44,162 bases of DNA from a virus (taxonomy: Duplodnaviria; Caudoviricetes), in IMG/VR virus record IMGVR_UViG_3300042350_000206, positions 1-44,162 of that record, one strand, 5' to 3'. Numbering within the stretch: position 1 is the first letter of the stretch; each line of letters starts with the position of its first letter. Below are positions 14,682 to 44,162 of the stretch, piece by piece. The notes under the pieces are model-generated. The model saw only the letters and a program-made list of their open reading frames with translations, did not search any database and was not told the DNA's origin. The position numbers were made by a program, and so were the translations under genes.

Positions 14682-14781
14682 ACGGAGAGTCCTTAAGCTG
14701 TATCATCTTACAGACGAATCAGTCTGACGTTAGAAGCTATAGAGATATACAGTATATGTCCATTGGGAAGCACTTAAGCTT

Positions 14782-14809
14782 ATTATACACTGTTTTGAGA
14801 ATCTGTCAA
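14782..14809 (-). promoter_or_regulatory. Sigma70-type promoter for the tail/core operon
   Basis: TTGACA(14809-14804)-16 bp-TATAAT(14787-14782). Confidence 0.8.
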
Positions 14810-14875: not shown

Positions 14876-15361
14876 TTACTCGACCTTGATGTACTCGACG
14901 ATCAGGGTAGCCGAGCCAGCGGTGAACGCAGCCGTACCGTACAGAGCGCCAATGTAGACCGGGGCCGAACCCACGGTAACGACACCAGAAACCTGAGCAC
15001 CGTCACACTGCACCACGTCACCGTCTGCGTCGATAGCAGTCAGAGCGATAGCAGCATCAATACCGTCAGCATCCACAGCGGTACCAGCAGCGTTGTAAGT
15101 ACCAATGGTCAACGTAGCCGAGCCACCCGAGGTAGCAGCGTCAGTGATAACCAAATCGGCATTCACGATGATAGCACCAGCCGGGATCATAGCTTCCAGC
15201 GGGTCGATGTTCGAGGAACCAAACGACGAACCAAGAGCAGCCAGCGACAGCTTCTTGGTGATGACCTGACGAGCACCACGAGCGGTGACGCCTTCGTCGT
15301 TAACAGCACCCTGAGCACCATCGGTCAGGACAAAGAGACCGTCAGCGTTAGTGTAAGACAT
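14876..15361 (-). CDS. Capsid decoration/cement-like protein
   Basis: 161 aa Ala/Gly/Thr-rich, IPAGAIIV motif, directly after the major capsid gene, AGGAGG SD. Confidence 0.6.
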   Translation of the reverse strand: MSYTNADGLFVLTDGAQGAVNDEGVTARGARQVITKKLSLAALGSSFGSSNIDPLEAMIPAGAIIVNADLVITDAATSGGSATLTIGTYNAAGTAVDADGIDAAIALTAIDADGDVVQCDGAQVSGVVTVGSAPVYIGALYGTAAFTAGSATLIVEYIKVE

Positions 15362-27769: not shown

Positions 27770-28297
27770 TTATTGAACCTTGATCCCTAGACGCTCCGCA
27801 TCCTCAGAGAGTAGCGACAGAGCCTGCTGATTCATCTCTTCTTCTTCCTTGGCCTTCAGTTTCTCTTTAGCCTTGGAAGCACTCTTGTCGTCAAGCCACC
27901 CACGCTCCAAAAGAAGCTTAGCAGCACCAAACGAAGAACGACCACCCGTACGCATCTCATCTGCGATAGAACGAATAGCCTCAGACTTAATCTTAACCTC
28001 GACTTCCTTACGCCACGCCTCTACGTCTTTCTTAATGTAGTTGCTATTGGACAGTTGAAGCCAAGTCTCCCACGAACCGAAGACCGCCCAAGCGAAGGTG
28101 TACTCCGTAGGGTCTGTGACACAGAACGACAAATACAGCTTACGCAAGGAGGTGTACGTCTTACCCTCACGCACAATGTCAGCTTCCTTGAGGGTGAAGA
28201 TAACGTGCTCAGGTTCAAAGTACGAAAGCTCCCAGAAGAGAGACTTGGTGCGTAGCTTGCCTTGTGACGTACGTAGCTGAGTCTCTGTGAAGAGCAC
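27770..28297 (-). CDS. Probable terminase small subunit
   Basis: DPTEYTFA...FGSWETW..L..WRKEVE.KIKSEA motif; first gene of the late arm; promoter shared with terL. Confidence 0.55.
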   Translation of the reverse strand: MLFTETQLRTSQGKLRTKSLFWELSYFEPEHVIFTLKEADIVREGKTYTSLRKLYLSFCVTDPTEYTFAWAVFGSWETWLQLSNSNYIKKDVEAWRKEVEVKIKSEAIRSIADEMRTGGRSSFGAAKLLLERGWLDDKSASKAKEKLKAKEEEEMNQQALSLLSEDAERLGIKVQ

Positions 28298-28427: not shown

Positions 28428-28456
28428 TTGACAGAAGTGAAAAACCAGTGTATAAT
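28428..28456 (+). promoter_or_regulatory. Consensus sigma70 promoter firing into non-coding DNA
   Basis: TTGACA(28428-28433)-17 bp-TATAAT(28451-28456). Confidence 0.85.
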
Positions 28457-28462
28457 AAAACT

Positions 28463-28705
28463 GTCCTTTGGCGGACCCTAGTATATACTCTATAGTATTC
28501 TTCTCCTTAAGGTTCACTCCTACGTAATACTTAAGGAGAAGCTACAGATTCTGCCATAGGTTGGCCTTAGGTCAGACTGATGCGGATTACTCGAAGAGTA
28601 ACTGTAAGATTCCATCGTAGTACGTAAGTACAGCGTCTGTAAGATATCCAATACCTAAGCACTACTCATGCACCCCTATGGTTCACTCCGTAGGGGTTTC
28701 TTTAT
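28463..28705 (+). ncRNA. Candidate ~240-nt structured small RNA
   Basis: Bounded by a consensus promoter and an intrinsic terminator; several nested stems; no convincing ORF. Confidence 0.6.
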
Positions 28706-28707
28706 TT
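28672..28707 (+). terminator. Intrinsic terminator
   Basis: ACCCCTATGG-TTCACT-CCGTAGGGGT then TTCTTTATTT. Confidence 0.8.
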
Positions 28708-28870
28708 GTCGTCTCCACTGAAGCATAGCGTAGGGGTACCCTGTGGGTCTAGGAATTTTTATGAGAAAATCTTTAGGTGCAATGTACGTACAGAGGCTAC
28801 CCGCGCGACCCCCCGCCTCCGGGTCCACCAACGTGATCACAAATGCACCCCCACCCCTAGTTTTGTTATC

Positions 28871-32422: not shown

Positions 32423-32450
32423 TTGACGGATCAGAAAAAGTTGCTACCCT
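32423..32450 (+). promoter_or_regulatory. Putative promoter of the replication operon
   Basis: TTGACG-16 bp-(GC)TACCCT, an alphaproteobacterial-style -10. Confidence 0.55.
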
Positions 32451-32536
32451 AGGGCTTGTCCCTGACAAGGGTTCTATATGTCTATTCCCTATAGGTCAGG
32501 CCATAGCAGATGGCACTAACGTAAGGACTAACGTAA

Positions 32537-35596: not shown

Positions 35597-35711
35597 CTTC
35601 GGGACTTGGTGGGAGCGAAGGGGTTGGTGGTTCGCACGTAAGCACAACCTAAGTGAAGAAGTCGTAAAGGAGATATGGGATGAAGTGTGTCGCTATGGAT
35701 ATCGAGACTGA
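35589..35711 (+). CDS. Small Trp-rich hypothetical protein (40 aa)
   Basis: AAGGAGAAGGA SD; MNNFGTWWERRGWWFARKHNLSEEVVKEIW... Confidence 0.5.
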   Translation: MNNFGTWWERRGWWFARKHNLSEEVVKEIWDEVCRYGYRD

Positions 35712-36585
35712 CGGGCTGGACCCTACGCGCATCTGGGTGATCTGCTCGAAGGACTTGGACACAGGGGAAGTCATGCAGTTCCTCAACCCATCCCATGTCG
35801 TCGAAGAGAAGGAACGCTTCATTGCTTATTGCAACACTGTTGACAAGTTTGTCTTCCACAATGGCTTGGGTTTTGACGTACCTGTTCTTCATCGTCTTAT
35901 TGGCAGTGCTTGTGTTCCTCTTGCTAGCGTCATTGATACTCTTATTGTATCTCGAATGATCGACTACGACATCAAGGAAGGACACAGCTTGAAGGCATGG
36001 GGTATCCGCCTCGGTCTCCACAAGGGTGAACACAAGGATTGGTCTAAGCTCTCGCAGGAGATGATCGACTACTGCCACCAAGACGTTCTGGTTACCTGTG
36101 CTCTATTCGAACGCTTCCGTAAGTTTATCTTCGACAAAGAGATGGCGATGGGCTTACGTTGTGAACACGATATCCAAATCCTCTGCGAAGAAATGACGAC
36201 CAATGGGTTCAAGTTTGACAAGGAGAAGGCTGAGGAGTATCTGGCTGAGGTCACTGAACGTATGAACGAACTTGAGGCTGGCTTCCAAAGGGACTTCCCT
36301 GCTAAGCTTCAAGAGGTACACAGGGTCAAGTTCAGGGTAAAGCAGGACGGGTCACTGTACTCCACTGTTGTCGATGCTAAGAAGAAATACCCTGTCACTC
36401 ACGTCGATGGAGAAAACTTGATCTGCAAGGATTGGGTACCCTTCGACCCTGCATCACCCCGTCAGCGTATCGACAGATTGTGGGAAGCAGGATGGACACC
36501 CGTAGACAAGACAAAAGGACACATAGAGTATGAGCGTGAGCAACGGATCAAAAACAAGTCCAAGTGGCAAGGACGAGGAAGATGA
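35680..36585 (+). CDS. DNA polymerase A, N-terminal part (3'-5' exonuclease and part of thumb)
   Basis: DIETD ExoI, HNGLGFD ExoII, YCHQD ExoIII; FDPASPRQ..LWEAGWTP. Confidence 0.9.
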   Translation: MKCVAMDIETDGLDPTRIWVICSKDLDTGEVMQFLNPSHVVEEKERFIAYCNTVDKFVFHNGLGFDVPVLHRLIGSACVPLASVIDTLIVSRMIDYDIKEGHSLKAWGIRLGLHKGEHKDWSKLSQEMIDYCHQDVLVTCALFERFRKFIFDKEMAMGLRCEHDIQILCEEMTTNGFKFDKEKAEEYLAEVTERMNELEAGFQRDFPAKLQEVHRVKFRVKQDGSLYSTVVDAKKKYPVTHVDGENLICKDWVPFDPASPRQRIDRLWEAGWTPVDKTKGHIEYEREQRIKNKSKWQGRGR

Positions 36586-37594
36586 TCGTGGAGCTAAGTT
36601 TGCCCGTTACGGGTGGATGTGCAATGAGATGAATCTGTCGACCCTCCCAGAGGATGCACCTGATGGCGCTAGGAACCTATCGGAGTGGCTCACCCTTGAG
36701 GGTCGTAGATCAAGTCTTGTCGAATGGCTGGGCCACGTTAAGGAAGACGGACGCATCCACGGTAGGTTCACCCACATTGGGGCATGGACGGGTCGTATGG
36801 CTCACTCAGCACCTAACCAAGCGAACATCCCTGCAGCCTTCCACGGCACCGCTAAGAGCATGGTCGACAAGGTGAAGGAGAAGTACGACGGGAAGATGCG
36901 TGGGCTGTGGGGTGTTGAGGCTGGTAACTGGCTCGTAGGCACTGACGCTGAGGGTATCCAGCTACGCATCCTTGCCCACCTGATGAAGTCTGAGGAGTAC
37001 ATTCACGCTATCGTCAGTGGACGTAAGGAAGATGAGACAGATATCCATAACCTGAACAAACGGGCTTTGGGTATGTCGCATGTGACTAGGGATATGGCCA
37101 AGACCTTTATCTACGCCTTCCTCCTCGGGGCAGGTAACGACAAGGTGGGGCAGATTCTCAAGGTCAGTGCTAAGGAAGCGGGTCAGGCTGTCGAAAACTT
37201 CATGGAGAGTATCAACGGTCTGAGTCGTCTAAAGAAGCAAGTGATCCCTCACATCGCAGAGATGGGTTGGTTCAAGGGCTTGGACGGACGCAAGGTCAAG
37301 GTTCCTAACGAACACAAGACACTTGCAGGGTTGCTACAGAATGGTGAGGCTGTCGTCATGAAACATGCGGCGCTTAGCTGGACAAACTCCGCAAGAGAAG
37401 CAGGGATTAAGTTCAAGCTAGTCACGTGGCCGCACGATGAATGGCAGACGGAAGTGTACGGAGACAAGGAGCAGGCAGAGTTACTGGGTTCCATCCAACG
37501 TCAGTCCATTGTTGACACCGGGGTAAAACTCAGTATACTGTGTCCTCTCGCAGGATCGACTGATATCGGTCGCAATTGGTTTGACACCCACTAA
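36530..37594 (+). CDS. DNA polymerase A, C-terminal polymerase part
   Basis: TGRMAH..PN, DAEGIQLR motif A, AKTFIYAFLLG motif B, HDE motif C; +1 frame relative to the N-terminal part. Confidence 0.9.
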   Translation: MSVSNGSKTSPSGKDEEDDRGAKFARYGWMCNEMNLSTLPEDAPDGARNLSEWLTLEGRRSSLVEWLGHVKEDGRIHGRFTHIGAWTGRMAHSAPNQANIPAAFHGTAKSMVDKVKEKYDGKMRGLWGVEAGNWLVGTDAEGIQLRILAHLMKSEEYIHAIVSGRKEDETDIHNLNKRALGMSHVTRDMAKTFIYAFLLGAGNDKVGQILKVSAKEAGQAVENFMESINGLSRLKKQVIPHIAEMGWFKGLDGRKVKVPNEHKTLAGLLQNGEAVVMKHAALSWTNSAREAGIKFKLVTWPHDEWQTEVYGDKEQAELLGSIQRQSIVDTGVKLSILCPLAGSTDIGRNWFDTH

Positions 37595-41550: not shown

Positions 41551-41735
41551 TGTTTGGCTTGGAGAACAAACTAAATGCCCTAATCGAGAATTATGGGCTT
41601 GCTTTACTCCTTGAACAGAACGATGTATCTGACTACGTTGTCGTCTTGTTTCTTGTCGAAGAAGGTTACATTGACCTAGCCGACTACTTCAACCTTGATG
41701 CTGAACTGAAAGAATGGAAGAGGATCGAAGAATGA
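41550..41735 (+). CDS. Hypothetical protein
   Basis: TAATG-coupled, ATG 41550. Confidence 0.6.
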   Translation: MFGLENKLNALIENYGLALLLEQNDVSDYVVVLFLVEEGYIDLADYFNLDAELKEWKRIEE

Positions 41736-41968
41736 TGGACTTTGGAGACGCACTACGCGCCCTAAAGCAAGGCAAGCGCCTTTCGCGTAAGGGGTGGAAT
41801 GGCAAAGGCTTGTGGTTGGAATTGCAGGTTCCTGACGCGCACAGCAAGATGACTTTGCCTTACGTCTACCTAAACTACCCGAATGATTCCTTGCACACAC
41901 CGGGCGCTCGGGTTCCGTGGCTTGCCAGCCAGACCGATATGTTGGCCGAAGATTGGGGAGTTGTCTAA
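41732..41968 (+). CDS. DUF2829 / Tad2-like anti-defence sponge protein
   Basis: MDFGDAL.ALK.G..L.R.GWNGKG..PY..PWLASQTDMLAEDW. Confidence 0.85.
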   Translation: MMDFGDALRALKQGKRLSRKGWNGKGLWLELQVPDAHSKMTLPYVYLNYPNDSLHTPGARVPWLASQTDMLAEDWGVV

Positions 41969-42327
41969 TGATTAGTGGTGAGGATATCGAAGCGTTCTTG
42001 GACGAGAAGCGTAGGGCTGACCTTACGCTCAATGCCTACCAGAAAGCTGCACGACGTACGGCTATCTACAAGGACAAGATCATCTACCCAGCTTTGGGTC
42101 TGTGTGGTGAGTCTGGTGAGGTAGCTGAGAAGATCAAGAAGTTTCTCCGTGACGGAGTTATGAACGACAAAGAAGTGGCTAAGGAGCTTGGTGATGTGCT
42201 ATGGTACATTGCTAACCTAGCCGAAGACCTTGGGTACGACCTAGCTGAAATCGCGGATATGAACCTTGAGAAGCTAGCAGATCGTGCCAATCGAAACGTA
42301 ATCAAAGGAAGCGGAGACAACCGATAA
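41968..42327 (+). CDS. mazG: MazG-like nucleotide pyrophosphohydrolase
   Basis: YPALGLCGESGEVAEKIKK..KELGDVLWY..NLEKL..R..GSGDNR. Confidence 0.88.
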   Translation: MISGEDIEAFLDEKRRADLTLNAYQKAARRTAIYKDKIIYPALGLCGESGEVAEKIKKFLRDGVMNDKEVAKELGDVLWYIANLAEDLGYDLAEIADMNLEKLADRANRNVIKGSGDNR

Positions 42328-44162
42328 TGAGCAACTACTTGCCTACAGACTACCAAGCCTTCATCCATACTTCGAGGTATGCTCGTTGGCTTGAAGAAGA
42401 GAACCGCCGTGAGACTTGGGGTGAGACTGTCTCTCGTTACCTGACCAAGGTTGTCGTTCCGAAGACCCGTGACGAGATTGTTGTCGATGACATTGAAGAG
42501 GCTATCCTTGGCCTTGAGATCATGCCTTCGATGCGGGCGCTTATGACTGCTGGTCCTGCCTTGGATCGTGACAACACTGCTGGCTACAACTGCAGCTACC
42601 TCCCGGTGGACGACCCCAAGTCCTTCGACGAAGCTATGTTTATCCTGCTCTGTGGCACTGGCGTAGGCTTCTCCGTTGAGCGTCAATACGTCTCTAAGCT
42701 GCCTGAGGTTCCCGACCAACTCTTCGTCGCTGAGGATGTCATTGTAGTCCACGACAGCAAAGAGGGCTGGGCTAAGTCCTTCCGTAAGCTGGTGGCTATG
42801 CTCTACGCAGGGGAAATCCCTACGTGGGACACCTCGAAGGTCCGTAAGGCTGGCGCTAAACTCAAGACCTTTGGTGGTCGTGCCTCTGGTCCCGGTCCTC
42901 TGGAAGACCTCTTCCGCTTCACCGTGGCTATGTTCAAGGGTGCTCAGGGGCGTAAGCTCTCGTCCATTGAATGCCACGACCTGATGTGTAAGATTGGTGA
43001 AGTTGTCGTTGTGGGTGGTGTACGCCGCTCTGCCATGATCTCTTTGTCGAACCTGTCGGACGACCGTATGCGTCATGCTAAGTCTGGCAACTGGTGGGAG
43101 AACCAAGGTCAACGTGCTCTGGCTAACAATTCGGTAGCCTACACTGAGAAGCCCGACATGGAAACCTTCATGCGTGAGTGGCTCTCTCTTGTCGAATCCA
43201 AGTCTGGTGAACGTGGTATCTTCTCTCGTCCAGCCAGCAAGAAGCAAGCTAACAAGAGTGGACGACGCAATGCAGACTATGACTTTGGTACTAACCCATG
43301 CAGTGAAATCATTCTTCGCCCGTATCAGTTCTGTAATCTCACGGAAGTCGTGGTCAGAGCTACGGATACACTTGAGGACTTGGAGCGGAAAGTAACTCTG
43401 GCTACGATCCTTGGTACCATCCAGAGCACCTACACGCACTTCCCCTACCTGCGTAAGATTTGGCAGAAGAACACAGAGGAAGAGCGTCTCTTGGGTGTGT
43501 CGTTAACTGGCATCATGGATAACCTCGCTCTGTCTGGTGCCATTGACAAAGATGCTGGCATTGCTTGGGGTTTCTGTGGCGACGAAAACTGGGGACTAAC
43601 ACAAACCTTGGAGCATCTCAAGAATGTCGCTGTCGCTACTAACGCTGAGTGGGCTGAACGTCTTGGCATCCCTGCTTCTGCTGCTATTACTTGCGTTAAA
43701 CCGTCTGGAACGGTATCTCAACTGGTCGACTCCGCTTCTGGTATTCATGCTCGTCACTCAGCCTATTATATTCGGACTGTTCGTGGCGACAACAAAGACC
43801 CCCTGACGCAGTTCATGAAGGATCAGGGTATCCCTAACGAACCTTGCGTTATGAAGCCTGAGACGACAACGGTGTTTAGCTTCCCGCAGAAGTCCCCTCA
43901 GGGTGCCATCACTCGTAACGACATGACCGCTATTGAACAGTTGTCGTTGTGGCTTACGTATCAGCGTAATTGGTGCGAACATAAACCATCTGTGACTGTT
44001 ACCGTACGGGATCACGAATGGTTGGAAGTTGGTGCGTGGGTCTACAAGTACTTCGATGAAGTCTCTGGTGTATCATTTTTGCCACACTCGGACCACACCT
44101 ACCAACAGGCACCCTATCAGGATTGCAGTGAACGTGAGTACCTTGACGCTCTTGCCCTGATG
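42327..44162 (+). CDS. nrdJ: Class II ribonucleotide reductase, 5' part (649 aa after joining to 1-256)
   Basis: ATG 42327 (MSNYLPTDYQAFIHTSRYARW), MPSMR, YNC, GTGVGFS, VGGVRRSA, TNPCSEI..CNL, VKPSGT; missed by the ORF track because it runs off the end. Confidence 0.92.
   Translation, partial: MSNYLPTDYQAFIHTSRYARWLEEENRRETWGETVSRYLTKVVVPKTRDEIVVDDIEEAILGLEIMPSMRALMTAGPALDRDNTAGYNCSYLPVDDPKSFDEAMFILLCGTGVGFSVERQYVSKLPEVPDQLFVAEDVIVVHDSKEGWAKSFRKLVAMLYAGEIPTWDTSKVRKAGAKLKTFGGRASGPGPLEDLFRFTVAMFKGAQGRKLSSIECHDLMCKIGEVVVVGGVRRSAMISLSNLSDDRMRHAKSGNWWENQGQRALANNSVAYTEKPDMETFMREWLSLVESKSGERGIFSRPASKKQANKSGRRNADYDFGTNPCSEIILRPYQFCNLTEVVVRATDTLEDLERKVTLATILGTIQSTYTHFPYLRKIWQKNTEEERLLGVSLTGIMDNLALSGAIDKDAGIAWGFCGDENWGLTQTLEHLKNVAVATNAEWAERLGIPASAAITCVKPSGTVSQLVDSASGIHARHSAYYIRTVRGDNKDPLTQFMKDQGIPNEPCVMKPETTTVFSFPQKSPQGAITRNDMTAIEQLSLWLTYQRNWCEHKPSVTVTVRDHEWLEVGAWVYKYFDEVSGVSFLPHSDHTYQQAPYQDCSEREYLDALALM
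44021..44162. repeat. Terminal overlap, copy 2
   Basis: Matches 1-142 with two synonymous differences. Confidence 0.95.

Follow-up and report, generated by a model that had tools for sequence, protein, structure and literature searches.

Why does a T7-like phage genome carry, close to its right end, a promoter and a terminator that enclose no gene? The window, by which we mean the whole 44,162-nt stretch of DNA that was analysed, comes from a marine/freshwater-type T7-like phage and is a complete, circularly permuted podophage genome of a cobavirus (Zobellviridae), with an end overlap of 140 nt. A sequence-only reading of positions 28428 to 28707 had proposed a phage sRNA with a repeated, bulged CUG-UAAGAU motif and a nested fold, acting as a protein sponge paired with a cis operator or as a packaging-associated RNA. 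The ORFs of the window form two opposed arms and include T7-like primase/helicase, DNA polymerase, terminase (among them a large terminase), portal and capsid genes. No RNA polymerase family matched any of the 60 window ORFs scanned, and no RNA polymerase is annotated in ICBM2, CRP-5, ICBM1 or CRP-4.

Several other features of the genome were recorded along the way. Two overlapping ORFs encode the DNA polymerase (35680-37594, plus strand) in the window, as they do in ICBM2 and CRP-5, whereas ICBM1 and CRP-4 have it as a single ORF. A Tad2-like domain (Thoeris anti-defence; PF11195, E 1e-23) is encoded at 41714-41968 (plus), and three ORFs of 451, 74 and 85 aa at 42084-44015 (minus), none with a family match, are oriented opposite to the replication arm. 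After the major capsid gene, a 161-aa ORF (14876-15361, minus) also has no family match, and in some relatives another gene ends at this place. GANTC occurs 82 times in the whole window, against about 172 expected at equal base use.

The unit, directed outward, has the putative terS gene on one side and the right terminal repeat on the other (Table 1). Its promoter and the terS promoter stand back to back, 60 bp apart, and 83 nt separate the terminator from the inferred repeat start. Lying beyond terS and before the inferred repeat, it is therefore the last transcription unit at the right end, and the link to the genome end that had been suggested is plausible. The name of the putative terS gene comes solely from gene order: its product shares 61% identity with proteins of Lentibacter phage ICBM2 and Roseobacter phage CRP-5 (both Zobellviridae, Cobavirinae, Veravirus), and homologues directly precede terL in K4, CVT22 and Klyazma. 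Fold and profile searches with the protein gave no named match; its AlphaFold model (pLDDT 75) had no match in the PDB, and the viral matches were all unnamed. The terS (28367-28330, minus) and terL (20708-20670, minus) promoters have a context of their own, CTGTGG-TAT(A/T)AT-TG(C/T)CACA, in which an inverted repeat flanks the -10 and may serve as an operator. TGATTCG, a GcrA-type motif, occurs in two leaders, that of terS (28328) and that of the tail operon (14721).

Table 1. Positions of the terminal unit, its parts, its neighbours and related cassettes in the window.
Feature	Position	Strand	Remark
Putative terS gene	27770-28297	minus	divergent from unit; named from gene order in relatives
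terS promoter	28367-28338	minus	divergent from unit
Sigma70-type promoter TTGACA-17-TATAAT	28428-28456	+	12/12 consensus; faces right terminal repeat
Small 5' hairpin/palindrome	28463..28476	+	different stem at same place in most lineages
TA-rich palindromic tract	28479..28497	+	loose pattern matches 31/31 lineages
12-bp stem	28500-28511/28530-28541	+	perfect in window only; 9-11/12 pairs in 11 relatives
Motif TAAGGA(C/G)A...AGATTC	28532..28552	+	deeper conservation; function not found
Nested domain of the sequence-only reading	28566..28659	+	clade-specific patchwork
Optional 23-nt hairpin insert (within nested domain)	28584-28606	+	in 6/12 close variants
Intrinsic-terminator-like hairpin and T tract	28672..28704	+	hairpin itself 28672-28697
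Direct terminal repeat, inferred start	28781..28790	+	likeness to first bases of ICBM2 repeat
Paralogous promoter cassette and 100-nt tail-operon leader	14682..14809	minus	hairpin and TAAGAT at 14705-14726
Third cassette: TACCCT -10 promoter, 20-bp palindrome (32452-32471), CTATAG tract	32423..32500	+	before HNH and primase/helicase genes

The sigma70 promoter and the terminator enclosing about 240 nt were found as had been described, with the +1 inferred near 28463. To place them among relatives, we joined the window to the best 80 of 287 terS loci. An outward promoter and a terminator, again without a gene between them, were kept in 75 of these 81 sequences, and of the six misses, five were truncated loci and the sixth had Ns in its promoter. 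The 75 loci reduce to 58 distinct units in 31 lineage clusters. Among the 58, the promoter matched the consensus at 12/12 positions in 51, at 11/12 in six and at 10/12 in one, and the promoter-to-terminator length ranged from 110 to 298 nt with a very variable enclosed sequence. The terminators comprised 26 distinct hairpin sequences in the 31 lineages, at -13.9 to -23.3 kcal/mol. Searches with the terS protein and the terminator yielded a second set, of close relatives: counting the window's own unit, it has 23 distinct members, in clade A (12, resembling the window) and clade B (10 aligned). A locus retrieved by its terminator pattern is no evidence of terminator conservation, but the loci retrieved through terS have the terminator too. 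The unit is a real, genus-level, gene-less transcription unit that we did not find described in the literature searched; the supplements of PMC6775973 list predicted terminators and may include its hairpin.

Its spacing was less regular. From terminator to repeat, the distance was 41-127 nt in 52 other units, and at three loci endonuclease genes (phrog_3322, 200-230 codons) facing the unit lie between the terminator and the genome end (L056:415-1074, L064:398-1006, L090:582-1280); the geometry is therefore loose. At L101-L103, a small gene between terS and the divergent promoter pair places the unit about 350 bp from terS. A palindromic element of about 30 bp beginning GCCC(G/T)TAGGGCG, which resembles a tiny mobile insert, occupies varying non-coding places in L034, L132, L044, L017, L074 and L080.

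The 12-bp stem and every helix that had been listed are in the sequence as described, and we measured them against 2000 dinucleotide shuffles of the 242-nt unit. A perfect 12-bp stem was unusual (0.15% of shuffles), some repeated 10-mer was borderline (3%) and some repeated 9-mer was not unusual (11%). The unit folded with a z of -3.8 with the terminator and -2.95 without it, and the reverse strand folded comparably (z -3.6). Across the 31 lineages, the median interior z was -1.5 for the sense strand vs -1.0 for the antisense strand, indicating that folding is not strand-specific; it was +1.4 to -1.7 in the seven closest relatives and -1.4 to -3.4 in clade B, where the reverse strand behaved alike. 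Helix TGATG/CATCG had a pairing probability of 0.04-0.13 even in the window. The nested helices P1-P3 had mean pairing probabilities of 0.89, 0.89 and 0.11 in the window and of at most 0.24 in 11 close relatives, meaning that the fold is predicted for the window variant only. No pair of the nested helices had changed on both sides in clade A, a set of close sequences with low power, and RNAalifold gave covariation terms of about zero in clades A and B, with a double change in 1/50 and 3/66 pairs. The nested fold was thus not borne out as a functional core. In the 12-bp stem, the 3' arm was invariant among relatives and one position was mismatched in all 11. The 5' hairpin had a mean of -6.4 vs -2.8 kcal/mol in shuffled sequence across the 31 lineages; the window's own was weak (p 0.18) and did not pair in the full fold (probability 0). 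Palindromic DNA repeats that pair on either strand appear to account for much of the apparent fold. As had been expected of a new RNA, Rfam 15 returned no match at the gathering threshold for the window and 10 related loci (best E 2.6).

The short motifs fared similarly. CTGTAAGAT, proposed as the repeated functional core, is exact at 28602 and 28637 and, in the tail-operon leader, at 14705-14713 on the minus strand, as had been claimed. It occurred in 2/31 lineages and 8/58 units, with two copies in 4/58, which does not fit a core role. Its first copy comes with the optional TTACTC hairpin of clade A, and clade B lacks CTGTAAGAT and keeps AGACTGA(T)GCAGATTCC without its pairing partner. The two loop copies of GGTTCACTCC are likewise exact (28511 and 28680), but this 'anti-SD' loop was present in 4/31 lineages only. 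A peptide is not what is conserved, in agreement with the sequence-only reading: the 15-codon ORF MRITRRVTVRFHRST, starting at 28580, is intact in 3/12 close variants and otherwise frameshifted or 4-35 codons long, and the longest complete sense ORF has a median of 18 aa over the 58 units, with none conserved. The interior of close relatives changes by whole-module indels. A wider search with the module CAGAC..GTCTGTAAGA gave 19 matches, in seven terminal units, four tail leaders and eight unrelated sequences, the last of which we take as probable chance matches. More deeply conserved were TAAGGA[CG]A-type motifs (15/31 lineages) and [CA]AGATTC (14/31), with TAAGGA(C/G)A...AGATTC mostly 13-37 nt before the terminator in distant lineages. 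Two candidate explanations were discarded: a hammerhead-like CUGAUG is not followed by GAAA in the sequence, and conservation of a GANTC/GcrA methylation site does not fit the variation of AGATTC to AGATGC, AGATCA and AGATGG. The longest perfect complement to the unit in the phage outside the locus, as a possible antisense target, was 13 nt.

The RNA data were assembled contigs from libraries X2, X7, X8, X9 and X11 (of 13 runs listed), which cannot give transcript ends, strand or level. Short contigs from three studies overlap the unit (X7, 28476-28668; X11, 28438-28659; X9, 28560-28665, in a record that continues upstream into other sequence). Their right ends cluster at 28659-28668, just before the terminator, which is a weak hint of a discrete RNA. 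The X11 contig starts inside the promoter, 25 nt upstream of the inferred +1, and in X2 the gap between the two promoters is covered as well; DNA or read-through is therefore possible. Uncovered stretches flanking the unit and low depth were kept out of the evidence. X9 records 16 and 17 contain a CAGACTGATG...GTCTGTAAGAT module with flanks that are absent from the window, and this module may occur at further places in related phages.

Palindromic 6-mers reached 33.8/kb in the interior vs 8.1/kb in flanking coding DNA, and the TA odds were 1.6 vs 0.96, with 1.39 in the non-coding DNA of the T7 right end. CCTWRRG-type repeats, a degenerate pattern picked after the sequences were seen, reached 15.9/kb in the interior vs 2.6/kb in coding DNA and 25.5/kb in the T7 stretch from phiOR to the repeat. 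By a nearest-neighbour scan, the least stable 60-bp duplex of the window is 28478-28538, which begins with the TA-rich tract; the stretch after +1 likewise ranks first in ICBM2 and CRP-4 (three of five genomes). Second in the window is the tail leader, and in ICBM1 the terS promoter comes first. In the CRP-4 clade, the position of the unit is occupied by a TTGAC..TACCCT promoter followed by an 88-173-bp tract of 19-28% GC that carries 2-6 CTT(W)AAG repeats (18 distinct versions from 23 loci, of which three were duplicates and two were without the promoter pattern). Even the weakest of the 58 terminators was stronger than any hairpin in these 18 versions, and 14/18 had none better than -9 kcal/mol. 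From position, orientation and repeat type, we infer that this tract is homologous to the unit. The outward promoter was absent at this place in ICBM1, which belongs to the same subfamily, and in Klyazma, CVT22 and MEP401, and the unit is therefore not a family-wide requirement.

Cassettes like this one have been duplicated, inverted and homogenised in these genomes. The third one, on the primase side, was found in 60 viral contigs (L231-L290), and tblastn placed primase or neighbouring early genes beside all 60; these loci were found by the palindrome, whose invariance among them is by selection. The cassette faces away from the primase in 52/60 and towards it, as in the window, in 8/60. Its -10 varies between TATAAT and TACCCT, which links the CRP-4-type promoter to the same class. 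This cassette is a candidate for the primary origin and arguably a stronger lead than the terminal unit, and it could also be an antisense promoter that shuts off early genes.

The tail-operon promoter (14809, minus) opens like the unit, with a hairpin and then a TA tract, and the motif common to the two, from which the idea of a sponge had come, is real and tracks clades. Leader and unit aligned with scores of 24-31 within clade A and 24-30 for B units with three B leaders, but 12-18 across clades, and in three tested pairs the score was reached by at most 1/500 shuffles. The leader hairpins have different stems in clades A and B, with AGAT after both. These observations are what one might expect of a trans-acting decoy RNA that titrates a phage protein also binding the clade-specific tail-leader hairpin; such an RNA would be protected at one end by its 5' hairpin and at the other by the terminator, and the clustered contig ends hint weakly in the same direction. 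Even so, we consider a decoy unlikely. ICBM2 and CRP-5 both have the unit, although their tail leaders are about 50 nt long and without the hairpin; no such hairpin is predicted for B leaders L168 and L183, whose alignment with B units is poorer (scores 15-25); most units hold a single copy of the motif; and a folded RNA is an unlikely reading of the CRP-4-clade version. In ICBM1, the leaders from the terS and post-capsid promoters are identical over roughly their first 22 nt, and unit L056 has a 5' end similar to the tail leader. Together with the short leaders, these cases mean that exchange between paralogous cassettes explains the pattern equally well, without a sponge. We find it quite improbable that a decoy evolved in step with the leader operator hairpin, titrating a phage repressor and timing tail-gene expression, a version in which the terminal RNA is proposed to have gained the matching hairpin when the leader hairpin was replaced between clades. 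CsrB and RsmZ are protein sponges, free-standing promoter-terminator sRNAs with repeated short motifs. The unit shares that arrangement but has only three GGA, no conserved repeated loop motif and no Rfam match; CTGTAAGAT is too sparsely distributed to be a repeated motif in a conserved structural setting, and its occurrence in the would-be target leader is clade-matched and absent in ICBM2 and CRP-5. Candidate ncRNAs from ONT-cappable-seq of Pseudomonas phages are outlined in bioRxiv 10.1101/2023.10.13.562163 as mostly derived from 5'UTRs or 3'UTRs or antisense; the likeness there lies in short non-coding phage transcripts conserved within a genus, but the unit is free-standing at the genome end and its sequence is not conserved across the genus.

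The unit might instead have arisen as a duplicate, placed back to back, of a late-type promoter cassette and serve to tune the divergent terS promoter through polymerase competition or supercoiling, with the terminator as insulation and an RNA that has no function. The short distance between the two promoters, the record of duplication, inversion and homogenisation, the whole-module indels of the interior and an ICBM1 cassette of this class that drives terS directly all agree with this. We nevertheless regard it as somewhat unlikely, as it leaves the TAAGGA..AGATTC motif, the TA tract and the repeat arrays of the CRP-4 clade unexplained. That motif could also be read as a minigene, in which a TAAGGA ribosome site and an ATN codon would yield a 3-codon product or couple the terminator to ribosomes that control it: in the window and many lineages, ATT, ATC or ATG comes 9-10 nt after TAAGGA, and ILP or ILL before a stop is seen repeatedly. 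In most cases, however, the codon is ATT, and L092, L104, L108 and L117 have the TAAGGA motif without an ATN; frame lengths run from two to more than 30 codons, the window's clade has the site 108-140 nt from the terminator, and the motif is missing in about half of the lineages, all of which makes a minigene very improbable. A phi29-type packaging RNA, as a structural part of the motor, would suit a unit with its own promoter next to the genome end, but the lack of an Rfam match and of a conserved fold, the large terminase and direct repeats of this phage and the absence of the unit in ICBM1 render it scarcely credible.

The reading that we tentatively prefer, and to which we would give somewhat less than an even chance, is that the unit may be, by analogy, what phiOR is in T7 but read by host polymerase, and may act in cis in replication or in the processing of concatemers. 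The conserved signals, the free interior, the DNA-like repeats, the low duplex stability and the primase-side sister cassette point to such a cis role. Host RNA polymerase would open TA-rich, palindrome-rich DNA beside the genome end, and the unit would be transcribed as a discrete RNA. This RNA or the open complex would prime DNA synthesis or recruit packaging proteins, and the terminator would keep transcription from entering the terminal repeat. The internal fold of the RNA would then be incidental, a by-product of short self-complementary DNA repeats. Several observations weigh against the phiOR-like reading: ICBM1 and other genera lack the unit, spacing is loose, ordinary promoters too have duplexes of low stability, RNA that ends at a strong terminator would be set free instead of staying as a primer, and the sister cassette could be an antisense promoter silencing early genes. 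T7-type primase sites were also not enriched (16 observed vs 13.7 expected).

The T7 right end consists of the phiOR promoter, gene 19.5, the M hairpin, short repeats and the terminal repeat, and transcription from phiOR also aids T7 packaging. In both phages, a promoter lies a few hundred bp before the right terminal repeat, faces it (here, 324 nt separate the -10 from the inferred repeat start, vs 549 bp in T7) and is followed by TA-rich DNA after +1 with many CCTWRRG-type repeats, and both have a T7-type primase/helicase and direct repeats. The differences are that phiOR is served by a phage single-subunit polymerase whereas the promoter here is of host sigma70 type, that there is no protein gene like 19.5 and the transcript would end in an intrinsic terminator, and that the cobavirus-type unit is absent from several family members. 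By a strict test, the unit is not a phiOR member because of its host-type promoter and lack of a gene. A strong hairpin whose place might correspond to that of the M hairpin lies shortly before the repeat in the 52 units, but it reads as a terminator and is weak or missing in the CRP-4 clade. T4 origins combine a middle promoter with a DNA-unwinding element and are primed by an R-loop; they share with the unit a promoter for host polymerase followed by easily melted DNA, but we identified no MotA/AsiA system here, and the unit is terminal and has a terminator. In the T7 literature, text in PMC8373140 describes phiOR as a secondary origin and states that every T7 origin needs a promoter, and PMC2680503 reports that deletion of 19.5 together with the M hairpin delays lysis, tying the hairpin to concatemer processing through a paper cited therein that describes concatemer-processing defects. 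Cobaviruses are proposed in PMC6775973 to replicate and package in a T7-like manner, via concatemers; neither 'promoter' nor 'non-coding' occurs in its main text.

Zobellviridae resemble T7 in their genes for replication and packaging but have no phage RNA polymerase, and T7 origins depend on the promoters of that polymerase, which therefore raises the question of how Zobellviridae begin replication; in the literature searched, we found no paper on replication start in these phages. The locus is a caution that palindrome-rich terminal DNA can mimic a structured sRNA when a single sequence is folded. It also allows two gene-less sigma70 cassettes to be named as origin candidates, the one at the right end and the highly conserved one on the primase side.
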